Position numbers and translations under genes: made by a program. Of a DNA stretch of 37,548 bases, positions 27,524 through 35,439 are shown one piece after another. The notes below the pieces were generated by a model, which saw only the letters and a program-made list of their open reading frames with translations, was not told the origin of the DNA and searched no databases. This DNA comes from Hyphomicrobiaceae bacterium (lineage in GTDB: Bacteria; Pseudomonadota; Alphaproteobacteria; Rhizobiales; Hyphomicrobiaceae). The stretch's first letter is position 1; each line of letters begins with the position of its first letter. The stretch spans positions 1 through 37,548 of the forward strand of contig JAFMSC010000001.1 in assembly GCA_017353825.1 (NCBI GenBank), read 5' to 3'.

Positions 27524-28477
27524 TTATCGGGCGGGGTGGTCTGGGTCAACCCTCTCCAGAATGAATGGAAATTCTGTCGCGATGAATCTTTCCATATCTT
27601 GCTGATAGATATGGTTCCACGCAATCATATTTCGCCTAAGCCAGGTGAGCTGCCGTTTCGCGTACTGGCGCGTGTCGCTCTGGCCTTTGGCGATGGCCTC
27701 CTCAAGGGATATCGTTCCGCGCACATGCGCCGCCAGCCAGGGCACCCCGTGCGCCCGCATGATGGGCAGCTCGGCCGAGAGGCCGAGGTCCATAAGCGCG
27801 CGAACCTCCTCCAGCGCCCCGGCCGCCAGCATGGCGTCGAAGCGGGCGTCGATGCGGGCGCGGTGCCTAACCCGCTCCGGCAGCAGCAGGAGCCGCACCG
27901 TTTCTGCCTCCGCCAGCACCGGCCGGCCGGGTTCGCGCTGCCAGTCGGCCAGCGACCGGCCGGTGCTCTCCAGGATTTCCAAGGCCCGCACGATGCGCTG
28001 CGGGTCGGTGGGCATGAGGCGCGCCGCCATCTCGGGGTCCCGCGCCTTCAGCAGGGCGTGCAACTCATGGGAGGGCCGCCGGGCCGCCTCGGAGCGCCAG
28101 AAGGCACGCACATCGGGGTCCGCCGCCGGGATCGGCGACAAGCCCGCCAACAGGGCCCTGAAATAGAGCCCCGTGCCGCCCACGAGGATCGGCACGCGGC
28201 GCGACGCCCTGGCGTCGGCGATGGCCTTGGCACCGTCAACGGCATAGCGCCCGGCCGAGTAGCCCTCAGCACCGCCGACAAAGCCGTAGAGCGCGTGCGG
28301 CGCACGTGCCTCGTCCTGTGGCGTCGGCCGCGCGGTGAGGATGCGCAACTCGCGGTAGACCTGCATGCTGTCGGCGTTGATGACGGTGCCGGCGAGCCGC
28401 TCCGCCAGGGCAAGTGCCAGCCCCGACTTGCCGCTGGCAGTCGGCCCGGCGATGAGGATGGGGCGGGGGGTGCGCAT
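27524..28477 (-). CDS. miaA: tRNA dimethylallyltransferase
   Basis: 'ILIAGPTASGKSGLALALAERL...INADSMQVYRELRILTARPT' is canonical MiaA. Confidence 0.95.
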   Translation of the reverse strand: MRTPRPILIAGPTASGKSGLALALAERLAGTVINADSMQVYRELRILTARPTPQDEARAPHALYGFVGGAEGYSAGRYAVDGAKAIADARASRRVPILVGGTGLYFRALLAGLSPIPAADPDVRAFWRSEAARRPSHELHALLKARDPEMAARLMPTDPQRIVRALEILESTGRSLADWQREPGRPVLAEAETVRLLLLPERVRHRARIDARFDAMLAAGALEEVRALMDLGLSAELPIMRAHGVPWLAAHVRGTISLEEAIAKGQSDTRQYAKRQLTWLRRNMIAWNHIYQQDMERFIATEFPFILERVDPDHPAR

Positions 28478-28986
28478 GGCGTGGAGTTAGCGCATTTCCT
28501 GGGAGAGATCACCGCTTAGGAGCTCGCCACCAGCACGGAGGGCAGCCCTATCGGCGAGGGCGCGAAATTTAGCCCCCGGTGCGTGTGCTGACCAGCCGTG
28601 CGCGATGGGAGGAAGGCCCGTGGCCGACCTAGTGGCCGACATGGACGTTGCGATCCCGGCGATTTGTCGGAATGCTTGCGCTCGGTTGGCCGCAGGTCTG
28701 CTTGCCGACGTCGCCGGAACCAAGCAAGGCTCGTCCGGTCACATTGCTTGGCCTCATCCTACTGGCAGTAGCCCCGGCATACCTCGCGCTCAAGCTTGCG
28801 CCGGGATCATGATTGGCTTCTACGAGGCCCGTGTTGATGCTCTCGCCAGCAACCTAAGGTCTCCAAGCAACCACGGGCTGGCAAGGCGGCGCTCGAGCAT
28901 CGGCAAGCGCCAGAAGGCGTGGGTGGGTGTCCCCCATTGACAGTCCAAGTCGCCGCACGGGATGGCGCCCCGTCCGGGCCCACAGA

Positions 28987-29026
28987 CCGTGATCGACGAC
29001 GCGTGATCGACGACGCGTGACCGACC
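28987..29026. repeat. Tandem repeat, 14 bp x~3 (CGTGATCGACGACG)
   Basis: Two perfect copies plus a degenerate third copy. Confidence 0.9.
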
Positions 29027-29251
29027 GGCTCGGTGACCATTATTGCGCTCGACCGAACGCGCATCTGGCATCCATCGAGGTGACGCTCGCCGGGGCTTGG
29101 TGGCATCGCCCTTAATCGGGCGGCTTCCCTGCGAACGGCGTATTGCGCCTAATTGATGGGCTCGATGCCCTGTTGTTGGGCGCCTCCACCTACGATCTCA
29201 CCCTGATGCTCCGGATTTTCAGCTGGCACAGGCCTTGCTGCCACCGCGTCC

Positions 29252-29362
29252 AGAGTTGGTGGCTAGGGTTCCGGCCCTGCGGGGCGTCTGGTCCGAGAGC
29301 TGCCGCCCGGCGGTGCCGCATCGCCGCCCGGGTGCACGGCGGGACAAAAGCCCGGGAGACCT
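29252..29362 (+). promoter_or_regulatory. Guanidine-I riboswitch aptamer (ykkC-yxkD class, subtype 1)
   Basis: All three conserved blocks are present in the right order and spacing: GGCTAGGGTTCCGG (29261-), CTGGTCCGAGAG (29288-), and ACGGCGGGACAAAAGCCCGGGAGA (29335-29359). It lies ~75 nt upstream of the ABC substrate-binding gene. A 9-bp hairpin AGGACTGGC/GCCAGTCCT follows (29371-29400) with no U-tract, then RBS GAGGGA at 29423. Confidence 0.85.
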
Positions 29363-29436
29363 CGGTGGCCAGGACTGGCTGCGCTCGGTCTCGCCAGTCC
29401 TCGGTCGGAGCAGCGAACGAACGAGGGATATGACCC

Positions 29437-30498
29437 ATGAAGCGCGTTGCCTCTCTCCTTCTTTCCATGACGCTCGCTGTCGGCGCCGGCTCGCCGGTCT
29501 GGGCGGTGTCGAAGAAGGACTTCAACATCGCGTGGACGATCTATGTGGGCTGGATGCCTTGGCCATATGCGGTCGAGACCGGCATCGTCAAGACGTGGGC
29601 CGACAAGTACGGCATCACCATCAACGTCACGCAGATCAACGACTACGTGGAGTCCATCAACCAGTACACAGCCGGCAAGTTCGACGGTGTGACGTTGACC
29701 AACATGGACGCTCTCACGATCCCGGCCGCAGGCGGGGTCGACACCTCGCTCATGATCGTCGGCGACTTCTCCAACGGCAACGACGGCATCGTGCTCAAGC
29801 AGGGCAAGAGCATCGCCGATATCAAGGGCCAGAAGATCAACATGGTGGAGCTGTCGGTCTCCCATTACCTGCTGGCTCGGGCGCTCGCCGGCGCCAAACT
29901 CAAGGAGGCCGACATCAAGGTGGTCAACACCTCCGATGCCGACATCGTCGCCGCCTTCAAGGCCCCAGACTCGACGGCTGTGGTGACCTGGAACCCGCAA
30001 CTCATGGAGGTGAAGGCCGAGCCCGGCGTAACGCTGGTGTTCGATTCAAGCAAGATCCCCGGCGAGATCATCGACACCATGGGCCTCAACACCCAGACGC
30101 TAAAGGACAACCCCAGCCTCGGCAAAGCGCTCGTCGGCATCTGGTACGAGACCATCGCGCTGATGGCGGACGCTGGCGAGAAGGGCAAGGCGGCGCGGGA
30201 AGCCATGGCCAAGCTATCAGGGACCGATCTCGCCGGCTTCGAGGCGCAGCTCAAGACCACGCGCATGTTCTACACGGCCAAGGATGCCGTGGCCTTCAGC
30301 ACCAGCGACGACCTCGCCAAGACCATGGACCTCGTACGCACCTTCTGCTTCGAGCACAACCTCTTGGGCGACGGCGTAAAGAGCAAGGATGCCATCGGCA
30401 TCGCCTTCCCCTCGGGGCAGGTGCTCGGCAACAAGGCCAACGTGAAGCTGCGCTTCGACGCCTCCTACATGAAGCTGGCGCTGGAGGGGAAGCTCTGA
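29437..30498 (+). CDS. ABC transporter periplasmic substrate-binding protein, NitT/TauT family, urea-carboxylase-associated type (candidate guanidine binder)
   Basis: Signal peptide, then 'FNIAWTIYVGWMPWPYA...KTWADKYGI...QINDYVESINQYTAGKFDGVTLTNMDALTIPAAGGVD...GDFSNGNDGIVLK...ELSVSHYLLARAL', which matches from memory the binding protein found next to urea/guanidine carboxylase genes. Confidence 0.9.
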   Translation: MKRVASLLLSMTLAVGAGSPVWAVSKKDFNIAWTIYVGWMPWPYAVETGIVKTWADKYGITINVTQINDYVESINQYTAGKFDGVTLTNMDALTIPAAGGVDTSLMIVGDFSNGNDGIVLKQGKSIADIKGQKINMVELSVSHYLLARALAGAKLKEADIKVVNTSDADIVAAFKAPDSTAVVTWNPQLMEVKAEPGVTLVFDSSKIPGEIIDTMGLNTQTLKDNPSLGKALVGIWYETIALMADAGEKGKAAREAMAKLSGTDLAGFEAQLKTTRMFYTAKDAVAFSTSDDLAKTMDLVRTFCFEHNLLGDGVKSKDAIGIAFPSGQVLGNKANVKLRFDASYMKLALEGKL

Positions 30499-30711
30499 CC
30501 TCCCTCTCCCCGCGTCACCAATTTTGTCACAGGCTCCTTCAGCGCAAGGTGAGGGCCTGATGAGGGCCAGGTTGAAGGGGCAGCAGTAAACTCCGAGCGT
30601 CGTCTGTGGCTGCCCCTCACCCCCTTGCCCGTTCGCCCGCGGGCGGTTGTTGGGTCGCATACCTGCCTGGACGGTTGAGGGCGAACGGGGAGAGGGTCAC
30701 GGGAGGGCCGC

Positions 30712-31533
30712 ATGCGCCGCGCCATGAACATCGCGCCGGAGCGGACCGGGCGGCTGGCGCTGGCGCTGCTGCCGTTCGCGCTGATCGCCCTCGTCTACGT
30801 GGCGGGCTCCGCGCAGCGGCGGGCGGTGAACCCCAACGACAAGCTGCTGCCGCCGGTTTCGGAGATGGCGGACGCGGTGCACCGGGCGGCGCTTGAGCCG
30901 GACCGGCGCTCGGGCGAGATCGTGCTGTGGACGGACACCTCGGCCAGCTTGGGGCGCCTGGGCGCTGGCTTGGGATTGGCCACGCTGATCGGGCTCACCC
31001 TGGGCCTGGCCATCGGCGTGCTGCCACTGGTGGCGGCGGCGCTGGCGCCGCTCGTCGCCGTCATCTGTATGGTGCCGCCGATGGCCATTCTGCCGGTGCT
31101 TTTCATCGTGTTCGGCCTGGGCGAGCTCTCGAAGGTGGTGCTGATCGTGATCGGCGTGGCGCCGTTCCTGGTGCGCGATCTCGCCTTTGCCGCGGCGCGG
31201 CTGCCCACGGAGCATCTCGTCAAGGCCCAGACGCTCGGCGCCTCCACCTGGCAGGTGGCCACGCGGGTGGTGGCCCCGCAGATCATGCCACGCCTAATCG
31301 AGGCGGTGCGACTGTCGCTCGGGCCCGCATTCCTGTTCCTGATCTCGGCCGAGGCCATCGCCGCCGAGAGCGGGCTCGGCTACCGCATCTTCCTGGTCCG
31401 GCGCTATCTCGCCATGGATACGATCCTGCCCTACGTGGCCTGGATCACGCTCATCGCCTATGCCATGGACCTGGGGCTGGCGCGCCTGTCGCGGGCAGCC
31501 TTCCCCTGGGCTCAAGCAGACGAGGGGCGCTGA
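30712..31533 (+). CDS. ABC transporter permease (NitT/TauT family)
   Basis: GGGAGGG RBS, about 6 TM segments, and an EAA-like loop 'AQTLGASTWQVATRVVAPQIMPRLIEA'. Confidence 0.9.
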   Translation: MRRAMNIAPERTGRLALALLPFALIALVYVAGSAQRRAVNPNDKLLPPVSEMADAVHRAALEPDRRSGEIVLWTDTSASLGRLGAGLGLATLIGLTLGLAIGVLPLVAAALAPLVAVICMVPPMAILPVLFIVFGLGELSKVVLIVIGVAPFLVRDLAFAAARLPTEHLVKAQTLGASTWQVATRVVAPQIMPRLIEAVRLSLGPAFLFLISAEAIAAESGLGYRIFLVRRYLAMDTILPYVAWITLIAYAMDLGLARLSRAAFPWAQADEGR

Positions 31534-32300
31534 TGGGCGCGATCTCGGTGCGCAACGTGTGGGTGGAATACGGCGACCAGATCGTGCTGGAGCGCATCAA
31601 CTTGGAGATCGCTTCCGGCGCGTTCGTGTCGATCGTCGGCCCTTCGGGATGCGGCAAGAGCACGCTCCTGCGCCTCCTCTTGGGGCAGGAAAAGCCCACG
31701 CGCGGCACCATCCTGATCGACGGCAGGCCGCTGCCGGACGAGCCTGGGCCCGATCGCGGTATCGTGTACCAGCGCTATTCGGTGTTTCCGCACCTCACCG
31801 TTCTCGGCAACGTACTCATCGCCTACGAGTTCGCCGGCAGTCGATTGTTGGGCCGGCTCATGGGCCGCGCGCGCCGCGCAGCCATCGACGAGGCCCTTGC
31901 GCTCATCAAGGCTGTCGGATTGGCGCTCCATGCCAAGAAATATCCAAGCACCCTGTCGGGCGGCATGCAGCAACGGCTGGCAATTGCCCAGGCGCTCGCG
32001 CGCAAGCCGCGGGTCCTGCTGCTCGACGAGCCGTTCGGCGCGCTCGATCCGGGCATTCGCGCGCATATGCACGAGCTTATTCGCCCGCTGTGGCGCGAGC
32101 ATGGTATGACCGTCCTCATGGTCACCCACGACATCAAGGAGGGCTTCGCGCTCGGCACAAGGCTCATCGTGCTCGACAAATGGCGCGACGACCCGCAGGC
32201 CGCCGAGCGGTTCGGTGCCGTCATTACATACGATCTCGACCTCACCCGCGACAACGCCGGGCCGGTGCGCTTCTGCAATGAGCCGACCGTCGCAAGCTAA
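31533..32300 (+). CDS. ABC transporter ATP-binding protein
   Basis: ATG overlaps the permease stop (TGATG). Walker A 'GPSGCGKST', signature 'LSGGMQQR', Walker B 'LLLDEPFGALD'. The ORF part upstream of 31533 overlaps the permease and was rejected. Confidence 0.92.
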   Translation: MGAISVRNVWVEYGDQIVLERINLEIASGAFVSIVGPSGCGKSTLLRLLLGQEKPTRGTILIDGRPLPDEPGPDRGIVYQRYSVFPHLTVLGNVLIAYEFAGSRLLGRLMGRARRAAIDEALALIKAVGLALHAKKYPSTLSGGMQQRLAIAQALARKPRVLLLDEPFGALDPGIRAHMHELIRPLWREHGMTVLMVTHDIKEGFALGTRLIVLDKWRDDPQAAERFGAVITYDLDLTRDNAGPVRFCNEPTVAS

Positions 32301-32334
32301 GGGTCGCCGACAGCGGGGACAGATCATTTCGCGC

Positions 32335-32922
32335 ATGGAACCTGTCGAGACTCATAATAGCCGGCTGTTCATTCGTCAGGTTCGCTCCCGTGACGTGGAG
32401 GACGCGCTCGTCTACCGGGACGGCGCAGAGTTCAGCCGCTATCTTCAGCACATCCCTCGCCCTTTCACGCGGCGGCACGCCGAGGCGTCGGGGGCGCGAA
32501 ACAGGGTGGAGCCCTGGGATCGGTCCGCGACCTTTAGGGAGGCGTTGACGGGAACCGTGATAGGCACAGTCAACCTCGATGTTGACCAAACCCACGGTAT
32601 GGCCATGCTGGGCTCCGCCATCGGCCACGCGCAGGGGGGAAAGCGAAGCGGCTGGGAAGCTGCCCCGGCGGCGGTTGGGTGGGGTCTCGGCGCGTTCGAT
32701 CTCGCCAACCTCTGGGGCACGACGGATGTGCGCAATGGGCGTGGGCGGCAGGCCGCTAGGCGATCGCAGCGGCTGATCGAGAAGCTCGCAAGTAGGCGCG
32801 CGGCGACGTTCCTGCCACGGCTGGCTCGCGATGGGCGACCGGATAAGCTCGATCATGGCTCTCCGCGCCCAAGTGCCTCTCAATACCTCAATGCTTGGGT
32901 AGCCCAAGGAGCAGCCGCATGA
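32335..32922 (+). CDS. GNAT-like (RimJ/RimL-type) acetyltransferase ORF, divergent and possibly degenerate
   Basis: 'SRLFIRQVRSRDVEDALVY...EFSRYL', 'VIGTVNLDVD...LGSAIGHAQGGKRSGWEAAPAAVGWGLGAFDLANLW', 'RSQRLIEKL...LARDGRP' follow GNAT topology. The acetyl-CoA motif is altered (GGKRSG where RimJ/L-type GNATs have WGKGxA). Visibly more A/T-ending codons than the neighbours. The stop overlaps the next ATG (ATGA). Confidence 0.5.
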   Translation: MEPVETHNSRLFIRQVRSRDVEDALVYRDGAEFSRYLQHIPRPFTRRHAEASGARNRVEPWDRSATFREALTGTVIGTVNLDVDQTHGMAMLGSAIGHAQGGKRSGWEAAPAAVGWGLGAFDLANLWGTTDVRNGRGRQAARRSQRLIEKLASRRAATFLPRLARDGRPDKLDHGSPRPSASQYLNAWVAQGAAA

Positions 32923-34127
32923 TCTTTGACCGATCAATCTGCCGTTCCCGTAAGGCCGGGCTCAGGCCGCCGCGCGATCAGGCTCCTTGCCACCACCCGG
33001 ACTTCGACAAGCTCAACAGCCAGGGCTGGAAGGCGCTGGAGGCGGAGGCGGGTCTCTCCGAGGACGGTTGGCGCCGCGAGCAGAAGTGGGCGCTCGACAT
33101 GGGGCTGCCGGGTGCGGAGAGCCTCACCGACAGGTCCATCCCAACCTTCGCCCGCGGGGAGCTTCCCCACTTCGCGGGCATCAACACCTTCCTAAAGGCG
33201 CCCTACGTGGAGAACATCCGCGATGTCGGCAAGTACGACGCCGCCGTGATCGGCATCCCCTTCGATGCAGGCACCACCTACCGCCCTGGCACCCGCTTCG
33301 GCCCCCAGGGCATCCGCCGCATCTCGGCGCTCTATACGCCCTACAACTATGAGCTGGGCGTGGACCTCAGGGAGCAGATGACCTTGTGCGATGCCGGCGA
33401 CGTGTTCACCATCCCCGCCAACCTGGAGAAGAGCTTCGACCAGATCACACGCGGGGTGGCGCACGTGTTTTCCTCCGGCGCGCTGCCGTTGATGCTGGGC
33501 GGTGACCACTCGATCGGTTTCCCCTGCGTGCGCGGCATCGCCCAGTGCACATCAAAGAGGATCGGCATTGTGCATTTCGATCGCCACATCGACATCCAGG
33601 AAAAGGACCTGGACGAGCGCATGCACACCACGCCGTGGTACTGGGCCACCAACCTGCCCAACGTGCCCGCCGCCAACCTGGTCCAGCTCGGCATCGGCGG
33701 CTGGCAGGTGCCACGCTACGGCGTGGCAGAGGCGAGGAAGCGCGGCACCAACGTGCTCACCATCGCCGATATCGAGAAGATGGGCCTCGACAAGGCCGCC
33801 GAGATCGCCCTGGAGCTGGCGTGGAAGGACGCCGACGCGGTCTACATCTCCTTCGACGTGGATTCGGTGGACTGCGGCTTCGTGCCAGGGACCGGCTGGC
33901 CCGAGCCTGGCGGCTTTCTGCCGCGCGAGGCACTGAAGCTCTTGGGGCTGGTGGCCGCCGAGGGCATTTGCGGCCTGGAGGTCGTGGAGGTGTCGCCACC
34001 TTACGATACATCCGACATCACCGCTCTGCTTGGTGTGCGCGTGGGCGTTGAGGCGCTGGGCTCGCTGGTCGCCCACGGCAGGCTCGGCAGTCAAAAGGCG
34101 CTCATCGACAATCCGGTCGCGTATTGA
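32919..34127 (+). CDS. Arginase/agmatinase-fold ureohydrolase, long form (candidate guanidine or guanidino-compound hydrolase)
   Basis: AAGGAG sits 7 nt upstream of the ATG at 32919. 'LMLGGDHSIGFP', 'IVHFDRHIDI', 'YISFDVDSVDCGFVPGTGWPEPGG' provide the full His/Asp binuclear-metal ligand set. About 95 aa precede the first conserved block ('FAGINTFLKAPY'), which is longer than in SpeB-type agmatinases. Confidence 0.9.
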   Translation: MIFDRSICRSRKAGLRPPRDQAPCHHPDFDKLNSQGWKALEAEAGLSEDGWRREQKWALDMGLPGAESLTDRSIPTFARGELPHFAGINTFLKAPYVENIRDVGKYDAAVIGIPFDAGTTYRPGTRFGPQGIRRISALYTPYNYELGVDLREQMTLCDAGDVFTIPANLEKSFDQITRGVAHVFSSGALPLMLGGDHSIGFPCVRGIAQCTSKRIGIVHFDRHIDIQEKDLDERMHTTPWYWATNLPNVPAANLVQLGIGGWQVPRYGVAEARKRGTNVLTIADIEKMGLDKAAEIALELAWKDADAVYISFDVDSVDCGFVPGTGWPEPGGFLPREALKLLGLVAAEGICGLEVVEVSPPYDTSDITALLGVRVGVEALGSLVAHGRLGSQKALIDNPVAY

Positions 34128-34135
34128 GGCCCGCC

Positions 34136-34663
34136 ATGCATCGCGATCATGACCACGCCCATGACCACGCCCACCGCCGGAGCGACAGTGATGGCCACCA
34201 CGACCTCGCCCAGGATGACGGCCACCACCACGACCATCGCCACGTAGGGCCCGGCCACAACCACAGGCCTACGCTCAGCAGCGTGGCGCAGTGGCAGGTG
34301 CCGCACCTTCACCCGAACGAGGCCCGACCCAGCACCCAGGGCGAGGCCGACCTCGACCAGGTGGAGGCCGCCTTCATCGAGGGCTTCCTCGCCGCCAGCG
34401 ACCCCACCAGCTTCCTCCGCCTCGCGGGCATCCCCTTCAGCATGACGGCGGGCGACGGCGCGTCGCTGTGGCTCCTGCGCGTGGAGACCGAGGTTGTGGC
34501 CGACATCGGCGCCCTCACGCCGCACCTCGGCGGCGGCTCGTTCCGCTACGACCCGCTGCCAGCCAACCTCGTCTCGCGCCGTCGCCGCCTGCGTTTTGTC
34601 TATTTCGATGGGACCGGGCTGAGGGCCTTGACCTTTGTCGACGTGCGACAGGGAGCCCGATGA
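34136..34663 (+). CDS. Uncharacterised protein with His/Asp-rich N-terminus (candidate metallochaperone)
   Basis: ATG lies 8 nt after the ureohydrolase stop, with GAGG 6 nt upstream. The first 45 aa carry about 17 His ('HRDHDHAHDHAH...GHHDLAQDDGHHHDHRHVGPGHNH'). The remainder is a ~130-aa globular-looking domain with very high GC3. No family recognised. Confidence 0.7.
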   Translation: MHRDHDHAHDHAHRRSDSDGHHDLAQDDGHHHDHRHVGPGHNHRPTLSSVAQWQVPHLHPNEARPSTQGEADLDQVEAAFIEGFLAASDPTSFLRLAGIPFSMTAGDGASLWLLRVETEVVADIGALTPHLGGGSFRYDPLPANLVSRRRRLRFVYFDGTGLRALTFVDVRQGAR

Positions 34664-34718
34664 CGAAGGGCGGCAGGGTGTCGCTGCCGAACGAGGTCGA
34701 CGCCCCTCGCAGTCGCCC

Positions 34719-35219
34719 CTACGCGGCGGCTCCGGCCGCCGGGTGGAACCGGCGCACCGCGAGGAAGCCGAGCGCCAGGAACAGCACCAGCACGGCAATC
34801 TGCGTGACCGCGAATGGCGGCTCGGATTGGGTGGGCGCCAGCGGCTGCAGGATGGCGAGCTTCTGGAATGCCTGCACCACGCCCACGAATACGTTGAGAT
34901 AGAGGGCCGCGACCGCGGTGGCGACGTAGACCCAGCGCCACGCTCCGGAGAGCCGGAAGGCATAAAGCGCGAGCAGCGCCACCGCGAGCAAGACGAGCGA
35001 GATGGTGCCGACCACGTGTGATGGCAGCAGCCCGCTAAAGGGGAACATGAACCCCGTCACACTGGTGAGGAGGGTCGTGGCCAGAAACAGCGCCGTCCAG
35101 CCACCGAGCCTTTGCGAGGCCAGCATGCCGTAGAAAACCACGAGCCCGGAGAGGATCCCCACGAGGCTGATGACGACGTGCAGCGTCGTGAACGCCGAAG
35201 CCGACAACCCCAGGGTCAT
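34719..35219 (-). CDS. Integral membrane protein (about 5 TM), unknown function
   Basis: ATG at 35217-35219 with GGAGG 6 nt upstream. Consecutive hydrophobic helices (e.g. TTLHVVISLVGILSGLVVFYGML, WTALFLATTLLTSVTGFMF, VVGTISLVLLAVALLALYAF). Confidence 0.7.
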   Translation of the reverse strand: MTLGLSASAFTTLHVVISLVGILSGLVVFYGMLASQRLGGWTALFLATTLLTSVTGFMFPFSGLLPSHVVGTISLVLLAVALLALYAFRLSGAWRWVYVATAVAALYLNVFVGVVQAFQKLAILQPLAPTQSEPPFAVTQIAVLVLFLALGFLAVRRFHPAAGAAA

Positions 35220-35439
35220 GGGCACCCTCCGCTAGAGCCCGCAACATAGGCGATTTTCGGGTCAACTTCCACCGGCACCTGGTGGCACCGAGGGGTGGGC
35301 CCGGCGCAATGGGCGATGCGGGGGCCGCCCGGCATAACCTATTGGGGGCTGCCTCTGTTCCCTTGGCGCGGTGGCGAGATATGCTTCGCCCGAAGCCCGC
35401 GCGCGCCTCGTGTGGCAGCTCCCGGAGGGACCCCGAGCA

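Follow-up and report, generated by a model that had tools for sequence, protein, structure and literature searches.

A stretch of 37,548 nucleotides from a Hyphomicrobiaceae bacterium (contig JAFMSC010000001.1, positions 1 to 37,548; the whole stretch is referred to here as the window) contains a leader of about 185 nt immediately upstream of an ABC importer gene at position 29437. To judge from its sequence, the leader includes a canonical riboswitch of the guanidine-I class (ykkC subtype 1), a further example of a well-known type, which probably serves as an ON switch for initiation of translation of the first operon gene. The operon predicted to be under its control comprises five or six genes, including those for the importer, a GdmH-type guanidinase and a His-rich protein.

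The aptamer and its ligand pocket

Comparison of the window with all 4227 Rfam families (cmscan) gave a single match above a gathering threshold, that of RF00442 (Guanidine-I) at 29252-29360 on the + strand. The match scores 82.0 bits where the gathering score is 63, with an E value of 2.6e-13, and is not truncated, covering model positions 1-107 of 107. The first-pass annotation had named a score below the threshold as refuting the assignment, and this outcome did not arise. When 28900-29700 was scanned permissively (E up to 10), no credible rival family emerged; the one addition was a chance-level match of 15 bits, on the opposite strand, to an unrelated family. The aptamers of nine relatives score 84-94.5 bits in the Rfam check, and in a tblastn survey of 68 related loci a ykkC motif is present upstream of the substrate-binding protein (SBP) gene in 62 (63 sequences with the window), most of the exceptions being loci without upstream sequence. 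The first-pass annotation had recognised a ykkC guanidine-I element from three conserved blocks, and both the class and the blocks hold up: CTAGGGTTCCG is present at 29263-29273, CTGGTCCGAGAG at 29288-29299 and ACGGCGGGACAAAAGCCCGGGAGA at 29336-29359.

29252-29360, + strand: guanidine-I (ykkC subtype 1) aptamer with P1/P1a, P2 and P3 (RF00442, 82 bits)
29335-29358, + strand: P3 and ligand pocket, with CACGG (29335-29339), GGGA, an AAAA loop, GCCC and GGGAG (29354-29358), mapped onto the description of the Dickeya dadantii structure (PMC5340920)

In the D. dadantii aptamer the pocket's floor is G67, within the run C64-A65-C66-G67-G68, G85 and the A38/G37 dinucleotide bulge contribute to the walls, and long-range pairs are formed between G84 and C64 and between G87 and C66 (Battaglia et al., PMC5340920). 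In subtype 2 the equivalents of G67 and A38 are pyrimidines, and G84 and G85 are not strictly kept (PMC5340920). The window has the floor G of ACGG at 29338, the sequence CCGAGAG with its AG bulge at 29293-29299, and GGGAG at 29354-29358, in which the equivalents of G84 and G85 are both G. Every pocket position compared with D. dadantii carries the subtype-1 identity and none matches the subtype-2 pocket, and from these nucleotides the leader aptamer can be assigned to subtype 1 (guanidine) with high confidence, in line with the earlier preference for this subtype over the ppGpp and PRPP types.

In the alternative view guanidine would not be sensed, and the RNA would belong to ykkC subtype 2 (as a ppGpp, PRPP, nucleoside diphosphate or 2d-type variant) or resemble the class by chance. 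Most conserved nucleotides are common to subtype-2 RNAs and guanidine-I, and ykkC models can detect the former as well (PMC5912903); the 5' GAGU (29253-29256) could moreover pair in a P0-like manner with CUC (29361-29363). However, the floor G and the AG bulge stand where subtype 2 has pyrimidines, G occupies both the G84 and the G85 equivalent, the genes downstream are for guanidine import and a guanidinase rather than of the branched-chain amino acid, purine, NUDIX or phn_DUF6 kinds, and the E value of the RF00442 match is low. This alternative has a negligible probability and we consider it effectively refuted. With the subtype-1 assignment, sensing of guanidinium by the RNA at 29252-29360 is predicted from the aptamer class.

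We also note that GAGU is conserved in the 5' leaders of the clade and that the complementary CUC lies directly 3' of the aptamer. It is a speculation that a GAGU:CUC pairing of 3-4 bp forms a P0-like closing helix reminiscent of subtype 2; both sides are invariant, so that covariation is uninformative.

The leader between the aptamer and the start codon

The 75-80 nt that separate the aptamer from the start codon can be aligned across 40 Hyphomicrobiales leaders. These have two sub-architectures, represented by an alignment of 24 window-type leaders and a Bradyrhizobium-type alignment (A3) of 17 (16 plus L005). As the first-pass annotation had stated, there is no U-tract terminator; no such intrinsic site was found in 28800-29700 nor on the + strand of 29400-35400. 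The leader does contain the 9-bp hairpin that had been described at 29371-29400, although its end coordinate needs correction, as the core is formed by pairing of 29371-29379 with 29393-29401. Four further pairs (29367-29370 with 29403-29406) extend it to a 13-bp form of -22.6 kcal/mol. The ribosome binding site GAGGGA is present where it had been placed, at 29423-29428, 8 nt ahead of the ATG at 29437. The predicted elements of this region, in which SD denotes the Shine-Dalgarno sequence, are as follows.

29356-29367, + strand: helix T, 5' strand, consisting of GAGACC (29356-29361) and GGUG (29364-29367) (folding, relatives)
29367-29379, + strand: arm A, putative anti-anti-SD and 5' arm of the 9-bp hairpin (A:B pairing in relatives)
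29382-29392, + strand: helix T, 3' strand, consisting of CGCU (29382-29385) and GGUCUC (29387-29392), within the loop of the A:B hairpin (folding)
29393-29406, + strand: arm B, with the putative anti-SD UCCUCG (29398-29403), able to pair either with A or with the SD
29422-29428, + strand: segment C, SD region CGAGGGA, able to pair with 29398-29403 (6 bp, -7.4 kcal/mol)

The UCCUCG of arm B is complementary to the SD region; B has two complementary partners, A and C, and both pairings are conserved in the relatives. Among the 24 window-type leaders the A:B core is 96.3% paired with two compensatory pairs (slid controls give 25-46%), and B:C is 84.6% paired, also with two compensatory pairs; in the A3 alignment A:B is 94% paired and B:C is 96.6% paired, with a CG-to-UA change in three leaders. 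In several leaders the segments have changed jointly: L020 has GGATCGGC in A, GCTGATCC in B and GGATCG in C; L005 has ACTGGC, GCCAGT and GGACTGG, respectively; and L048, L052 and L065 have CC[CT]ATCC in B and GGATGG in C. Helix T (29356-29367 with 29382-29385 and 29387-29392) has a predicted energy of -12.3 kcal/mol and is 76% paired in the window-type leaders, with changes that are mostly one-sided. Its GAGACC overlaps the pocket nucleotides G85-A86-G87, and because of this shared use helix T would be incompatible with ligand-bound P3. It also encloses A and abuts B without a spacer, and T and A:B should thus be topologically exclusive. An alternative 8-bp pairing is available between the P3 5' strand GGCGGGAC (29338-29345) and GUCUCGCC (29388-29395), the latter being part of the T 3' strand together with three nucleotides of arm B.

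We envisage that in the absence of guanidine the 3' strand of P3 (the GAG of GGGAG, together with ACC) would pair with GGUCUC in the hairpin loop to give helix T or, alternatively, that the P3 5' strand would take up the 8-bp pairing. Helix T, enclosing arm A and touching the first nucleotides of B, would block formation of the A:B hairpin, and the UCCUCG of B would then mask CGAGGG of the SD, leaving translation OFF. Binding of guanidinium would lock P3 and withdraw the 5' strand of T, such that A:B could form, the SD would be freed and translation would be ON; leader mRNA that is not translated might additionally be subject to Rho-dependent polarity, which would fit all of the observations. 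The 9-bp hairpin is then most likely an anti-anti-SD, an element of the ON state and not a repressing structure. Translational control of the first gene, which had been suggested at the outset, is supported by the conserved and partly covarying anti-SD:SD pairing in the relatives.

Structure predictions bear on this relay in several ways. In three relatives (L002, L012 and L067) the unconstrained minimum free energy structure is exactly T plus B:C. When the window RNA is folded as a growing transcript to 29440, the free aptamer gives an aptamer-disrupting helix together with B:C, whereas blocking of the aptamer gives A:B; helix T forms in the ligand-free growing-transcript fold, and the unpaired fraction of the SD is 0.12 in the free state versus 0.23-0.26 with the aptamer blocked. 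Across the 40 leaders, SD accessibility increases from 0.17 to 0.35-0.41 (p 1e-6 to 2e-9), and does so only if at least 27 nt are blocked.

Several observations weigh against switching by SD masking. The guanidine-I switches studied to date are transcriptional, and a 2025 review states that the class 'usually operates as a transcriptional ON switch' (PMC12186494). The compensatory changes are few and the sequences related, such that the covariation is suggestive and not decisive, and helix T has a two-sided change at one pair only, in a single sequence. Blocking no more than the 24 aptamer nucleotides through GGGAG does not raise SD accessibility, with values in the equilibrium ensembles of the 40 leaders of 0.17 versus 0.17-0.21, depending on the 3' boundary (p >0.4). 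The window B:C helix has only 6 bp, compared to 8-10 bp in the relatives, and T plus B:C (-19.7 kcal/mol) is less stable in the window than the A:B hairpin (-22.6 kcal/mol); an OFF state would thus depend on kinetics during transcription, failing which the window copy would be leaky. Because the accessibility switch appears only with three or more further nucleotides withheld, the bound aptamer may also immobilise the first nucleotides of the linker, possibly via closure with GAGU. In the equilibrium predictions the SD is mostly paired in both states, and with 12 nt of coding sequence included the unconstrained and blocked folds of the window both give A:B. Thermodynamic support for switching in these models is conditional.

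In a different reading the same aptamer would act chiefly through Rho, by premature termination or polarity and not by masking the SD directly, with the conserved helices controlling exposure of a Rho loading site or the coupling of transcription and translation; the two outputs are compatible. The lack of an intrinsic terminator in the regions searched, the long leader and the GC content of the organism (67%) are all consistent with this, as is the prediction of an SD mostly paired in both states, which makes a kinetic or coupled mechanism plausible. However, a covarying element specifically complementary to the SD is a signature of translational control, and no C-rich, G-poor rut-like tract was seen in 29360-29436 (by eye only, without composition analysis). 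We regard Rho as the principal output as unlikely.

It is also conceivable, but quite improbable, that the aptamer is intact and the expression platform of the window has drifted, such that expression is leaky or near-constitutive and controlled mainly from the sigma-54 promoter described below. The SD-proximal segment of the window is GAGGGAUAUGACC where the clade has GAGGRUUGG, the B:C helix is short (6 bp, -7.4 kcal/mol, versus 8-10 bp in relatives), both folds give A:B once the 12 nt of coding sequence are added, and the operon contains a window-specific GNAT-like insertion of atypical codon composition. Many riboswitches nonetheless manage with a GC-rich anti-SD helix of 6 bp, the difference between the free and bound states persists in the growing-transcript fold to 29440, and the aptamer, A:B and T are fully retained in the window. 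Translational control by SD masking is the reading we prefer.

Promoter, operon genes and related loci

The leader is preceded by a putative sigma-54 promoter.

29224-29238, + strand: sigma-54 -24/-12 element TGGCAC-N5-TTGC, TGGCACAGGCCTTGC (exact match, conserved in relatives)

No second exact match exists in the window, where chance would give 0.12, and 42 related loci have TGGCA[CT]-N5-TTGC 22-25 nt upstream of CTAGGG. In the related loci a variable spacer separates the element from the conserved GAGU of the leader, and in most of them a T-tract lies just upstream of the element. Since the usual sigma-54 spacing is 12-13 nt, transcription is predicted to start at about 29249-29252, at the 5' end of the aptamer, where the Rfam match begins. 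No sigma-70 promoter was found on the + strand around the leader or through the operon.

Transcription from this promoter would call for an enhancer-binding activator, probably one responding to a nitrogen-limitation signal. Two conserved elements on the + strand are candidate activator sites, a TGCC-N9-GGC dyad at 29167-29183, identified by k-mer and alignment analysis, and GCC(C/T)AA..TGGGC at 29146-29162. Relative to the -24 element these dyad-like sequences (29146-29183) lie about 40-80 nt upstream, the TGCC-N9-GGC dyad at about 60 nt, where an enhancer-binding protein is expected, and they are unlike the enteric NtrC consensus. An enteric-type NtrC site (GCAC-N-GTGC) was not found upstream of the sigma-54 element, which weighs against this view of the regulation. 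We infer that expression would require both the activator signal, plausibly nitrogen limitation, and guanidine. Dual control by NtcA and a guanidine-I riboswitch has been shown experimentally in Synechocystis (PMC12704784); in the literature searched we found no paper that links sigma-54, RpoN or NtrC to guanidine riboswitches. Between the promoter and the divergent miaA (27524-28477, minus strand) is an unusually long tract of some 750 nt (28478-29223) with no recognisable gene, and an open reading frame (ORF) in this interval (28605-28940) has no Pfam match and no counterpart in the related loci.

The operon contains the following genes.

29437-30498, + strand: SBP, periplasmic component of a predicted guanidine ABC importer, GimA-like (TIGR03427 'ABC_peri_uca')
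30712-31533, + strand: ABC permease (Pfam BPD_transp_1)
about 31530-32300, + strand: ABC ATPase (Pfam ABC_tran)
32335-32922, + strand: GNAT-like ORF between the ABC ATPase gene and gdmH (Pfam Acetyltransf_3, E 4e-9)
32919-34127, + strand: GdmH-type Ni-dependent guanidine hydrolase, a predicted guanidinase (bit scores, specificity motifs)
34136-34663, + strand: conserved His-rich protein, last gene of the operon (synteny, homologue search)

The SBP matches the NCBIfam equivalog TIGR03427 with 551 bits (cutoff 334), consistent with the NitT/TauT urea/guanidine-type transporter family named in the first-pass annotation. A gap of 213 nt (30499-30711) separates the SBP and permease genes, with no terminator-like site on the + strand there. 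The same annotation had described the transporter as of the carboxylase-associated type, and here the catabolic route needs refinement. The product of 32919-34127 scores 548 bits with Synechocystis GdmH (7ESR/7OI1) and 522 bits with the Nitrospira inopinata guanidinase (9FEK), but no more than 174 bits with guanidinobutyrase, agmatinase and other ureohydrolases. A urea/guanidine carboxylase pathway downstream was ruled out as a candidate, the catabolic gene being gdmH. The motifs GTTYRPG and GTGWPEPGG are conserved in the alignment and hold the Thr and Trp that are reported as setting guanidine specificity in GdmH-type enzymes (PMC11410670); these are the equivalents of Thr97 and Trp305 of the Synechocystis enzyme, if the deposited chain is taken to be offset by a 2-residue tag. 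By these comparisons the product is a GdmH orthologue and a predicted guanidinase, although as an arginase-family gene it would probably be annotated as an 'agmatinase'.

The His-rich protein begins with MHRDHDHAHDH..., has the conserved motifs GPGHNH and QWQTPH, and ends in a C-terminal domain of ~100 residues with an invariant PHLGG..FRYDPLP. Its gene has a GC content at third codon positions (GC3) of 0.87 and follows gdmH in the related Hyphomicrobiales loci that reach that far, with 49-71% identity. More than 1700 homologues were found, all named 'hypothetical', and there was no match in Pfam or NCBIfam family searches. The C-terminal domain is predicted confidently by AlphaFold2, yet no match was found in the PDB (best E 0.56). 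Among the genes downstream of the aptamer there are no HypA/HypB-like Ni maturases (GhaA, GhaB). Because GdmH is Ni-dependent and GhaA and GhaB are absent, a role of the His-rich protein in delivery of Ni to the guanidinase is a reasonable guess.

The GNAT-like ORF is specific to the window, with no homologue in any of the 68 related loci. Its codon composition is atypical (GC3 of 0.70 versus 0.84-0.88 for the adjoining genes) and the gdmH ATG overlaps with its stop codon (ATGA); the ORF may have been inserted recently, or it may be a gene in decay.

The gene order SBP-permease-ATPase-gdmH-(His-rich ORF) is maintained throughout the Hyphomicrobiales relatives (tblastn; syntenic in about 45 loci), the exceptions for gdmH being a few contigs that end before it and L052, which has no gdmH match. 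The permease and ATPase pair is syntenic in all relatives, whereas the gamma- and betaproteobacterial relatives (including L030-L045) have the importer and lack gdmH. Additional guanidine-I motifs occur at some loci: in five of the Bradyrhizobium type (L016, L018, L019, L043 and L050) a second motif lies close to the importer operon on the minus strand, at roughly 0.8-8.7 kb within the respective locus, and the Pseudomonas loci L035, L037 and L039 have a second copy on the same strand about 1.4 kb upstream.

Relationship to known guanidine systems

We tentatively suggest that soil Hyphomicrobiales (Xanthobacteraceae and Bradyrhizobium relatives) may run guanidine assimilation through a hitherto undescribed two-input gate, although the odds for the full combination are somewhat against it. 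It would consist of a nitrogen-reading sigma-54 promoter, a guanidine-I aptamer at +1, a terminator-less three-helix relay (T, A, B, then SD), possibly a P0-like closure, and an importer-gdmH operon in which a new His-rich family would stand in for HypA/HypB-type maturases and deliver Ni to the guanidinase. Nothing new is added by the aptamer, a clean, annotatable instance of RF00442, which is a curated class of solved structure, and the importer/guanidinase context is already known from cyanobacteria and comammox Nitrospira; the putative SD-masking relay of this alphaproteobacterial clade is a lineage-specific variant of the output stage and not a new kind of switch. What the comparison adds is that the TIGR03427 'urea carboxylase-associated' importer is coupled, throughout one alphaproteobacterial clade, to an ATP-independent guanidinase and not to a carboxylase, which bears on how guanidine nitrogen cycling in soils is annotated. 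It also offers a comparative model for the rewiring of a class regarded as transcriptional to translational control in GC-rich Proteobacteria, and raises as testable items a logic gate requiring both sigma-54 and the riboswitch, and an uncharacterised His-rich partner of GdmH.

The aptamers of Dickeya dadantii, Sulfobacillus acidophilus and Burkholderia have the same P1/P2/P3 architecture, with the three conserved blocks identical and the pocket nucleotides matching. In the characterised guanidine-I examples the P3 3' strand also takes part in an alternative helix, and the ON logic appears to be alike. Those examples disrupt an intrinsic terminator (PMC5340920; PMC12186494), whereas in the window leader the alternative helix lacks a U-tract and is apparently wired to an anti-anti-SD / anti-SD / SD relay. 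The usual platform, an intrinsic terminator competing with P3, is thus not present in the window, although the platform does not define the aptamer class.

The Pseudomonas and Raoultella carboxylase loci have in common with the window an SBP of the TIGR03427 type behind a guanidine-I aptamer, as seen in the gamma- and betaproteobacterial loci L030-L045, but they lack gdmH, use the ATP-dependent carboxylase pathway and have a different platform sequence in the leader. In comammox Nitrospira (PMC11410670), as in the window, a guanidine-I element precedes a transporter and then a GdmH-type guanidinase, and HypA/B-type Ni chaperones are absent nearby; the transporter is an APC permease instead of an ABC system, and control is described as transcriptional (PMC11410670).

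The guanidine assimilation locus gdmH-ghaAB / gimABC of Synechocystis sp. PCC 6803 (Funck et al. 2022; PMC12704784) has in common with the window a guanidine-I riboswitch, GdmH and an ABC importer of the NMT1 type. Synechocystis has the riboswitch ahead of gdmH, a separate NtcA promoter for the transporter, and accessory genes that encode the HypA/HypB-like GhaA and GhaB, whereas the window has a single leader before the importer and then gdmH, a sigma-54-type promoter, and an unrelated His-rich protein after gdmH in place of Hyp-like genes. Both loci nonetheless appear to combine transcriptional control by nitrogen status with a riboswitch, the promoter part being a prediction for the window.

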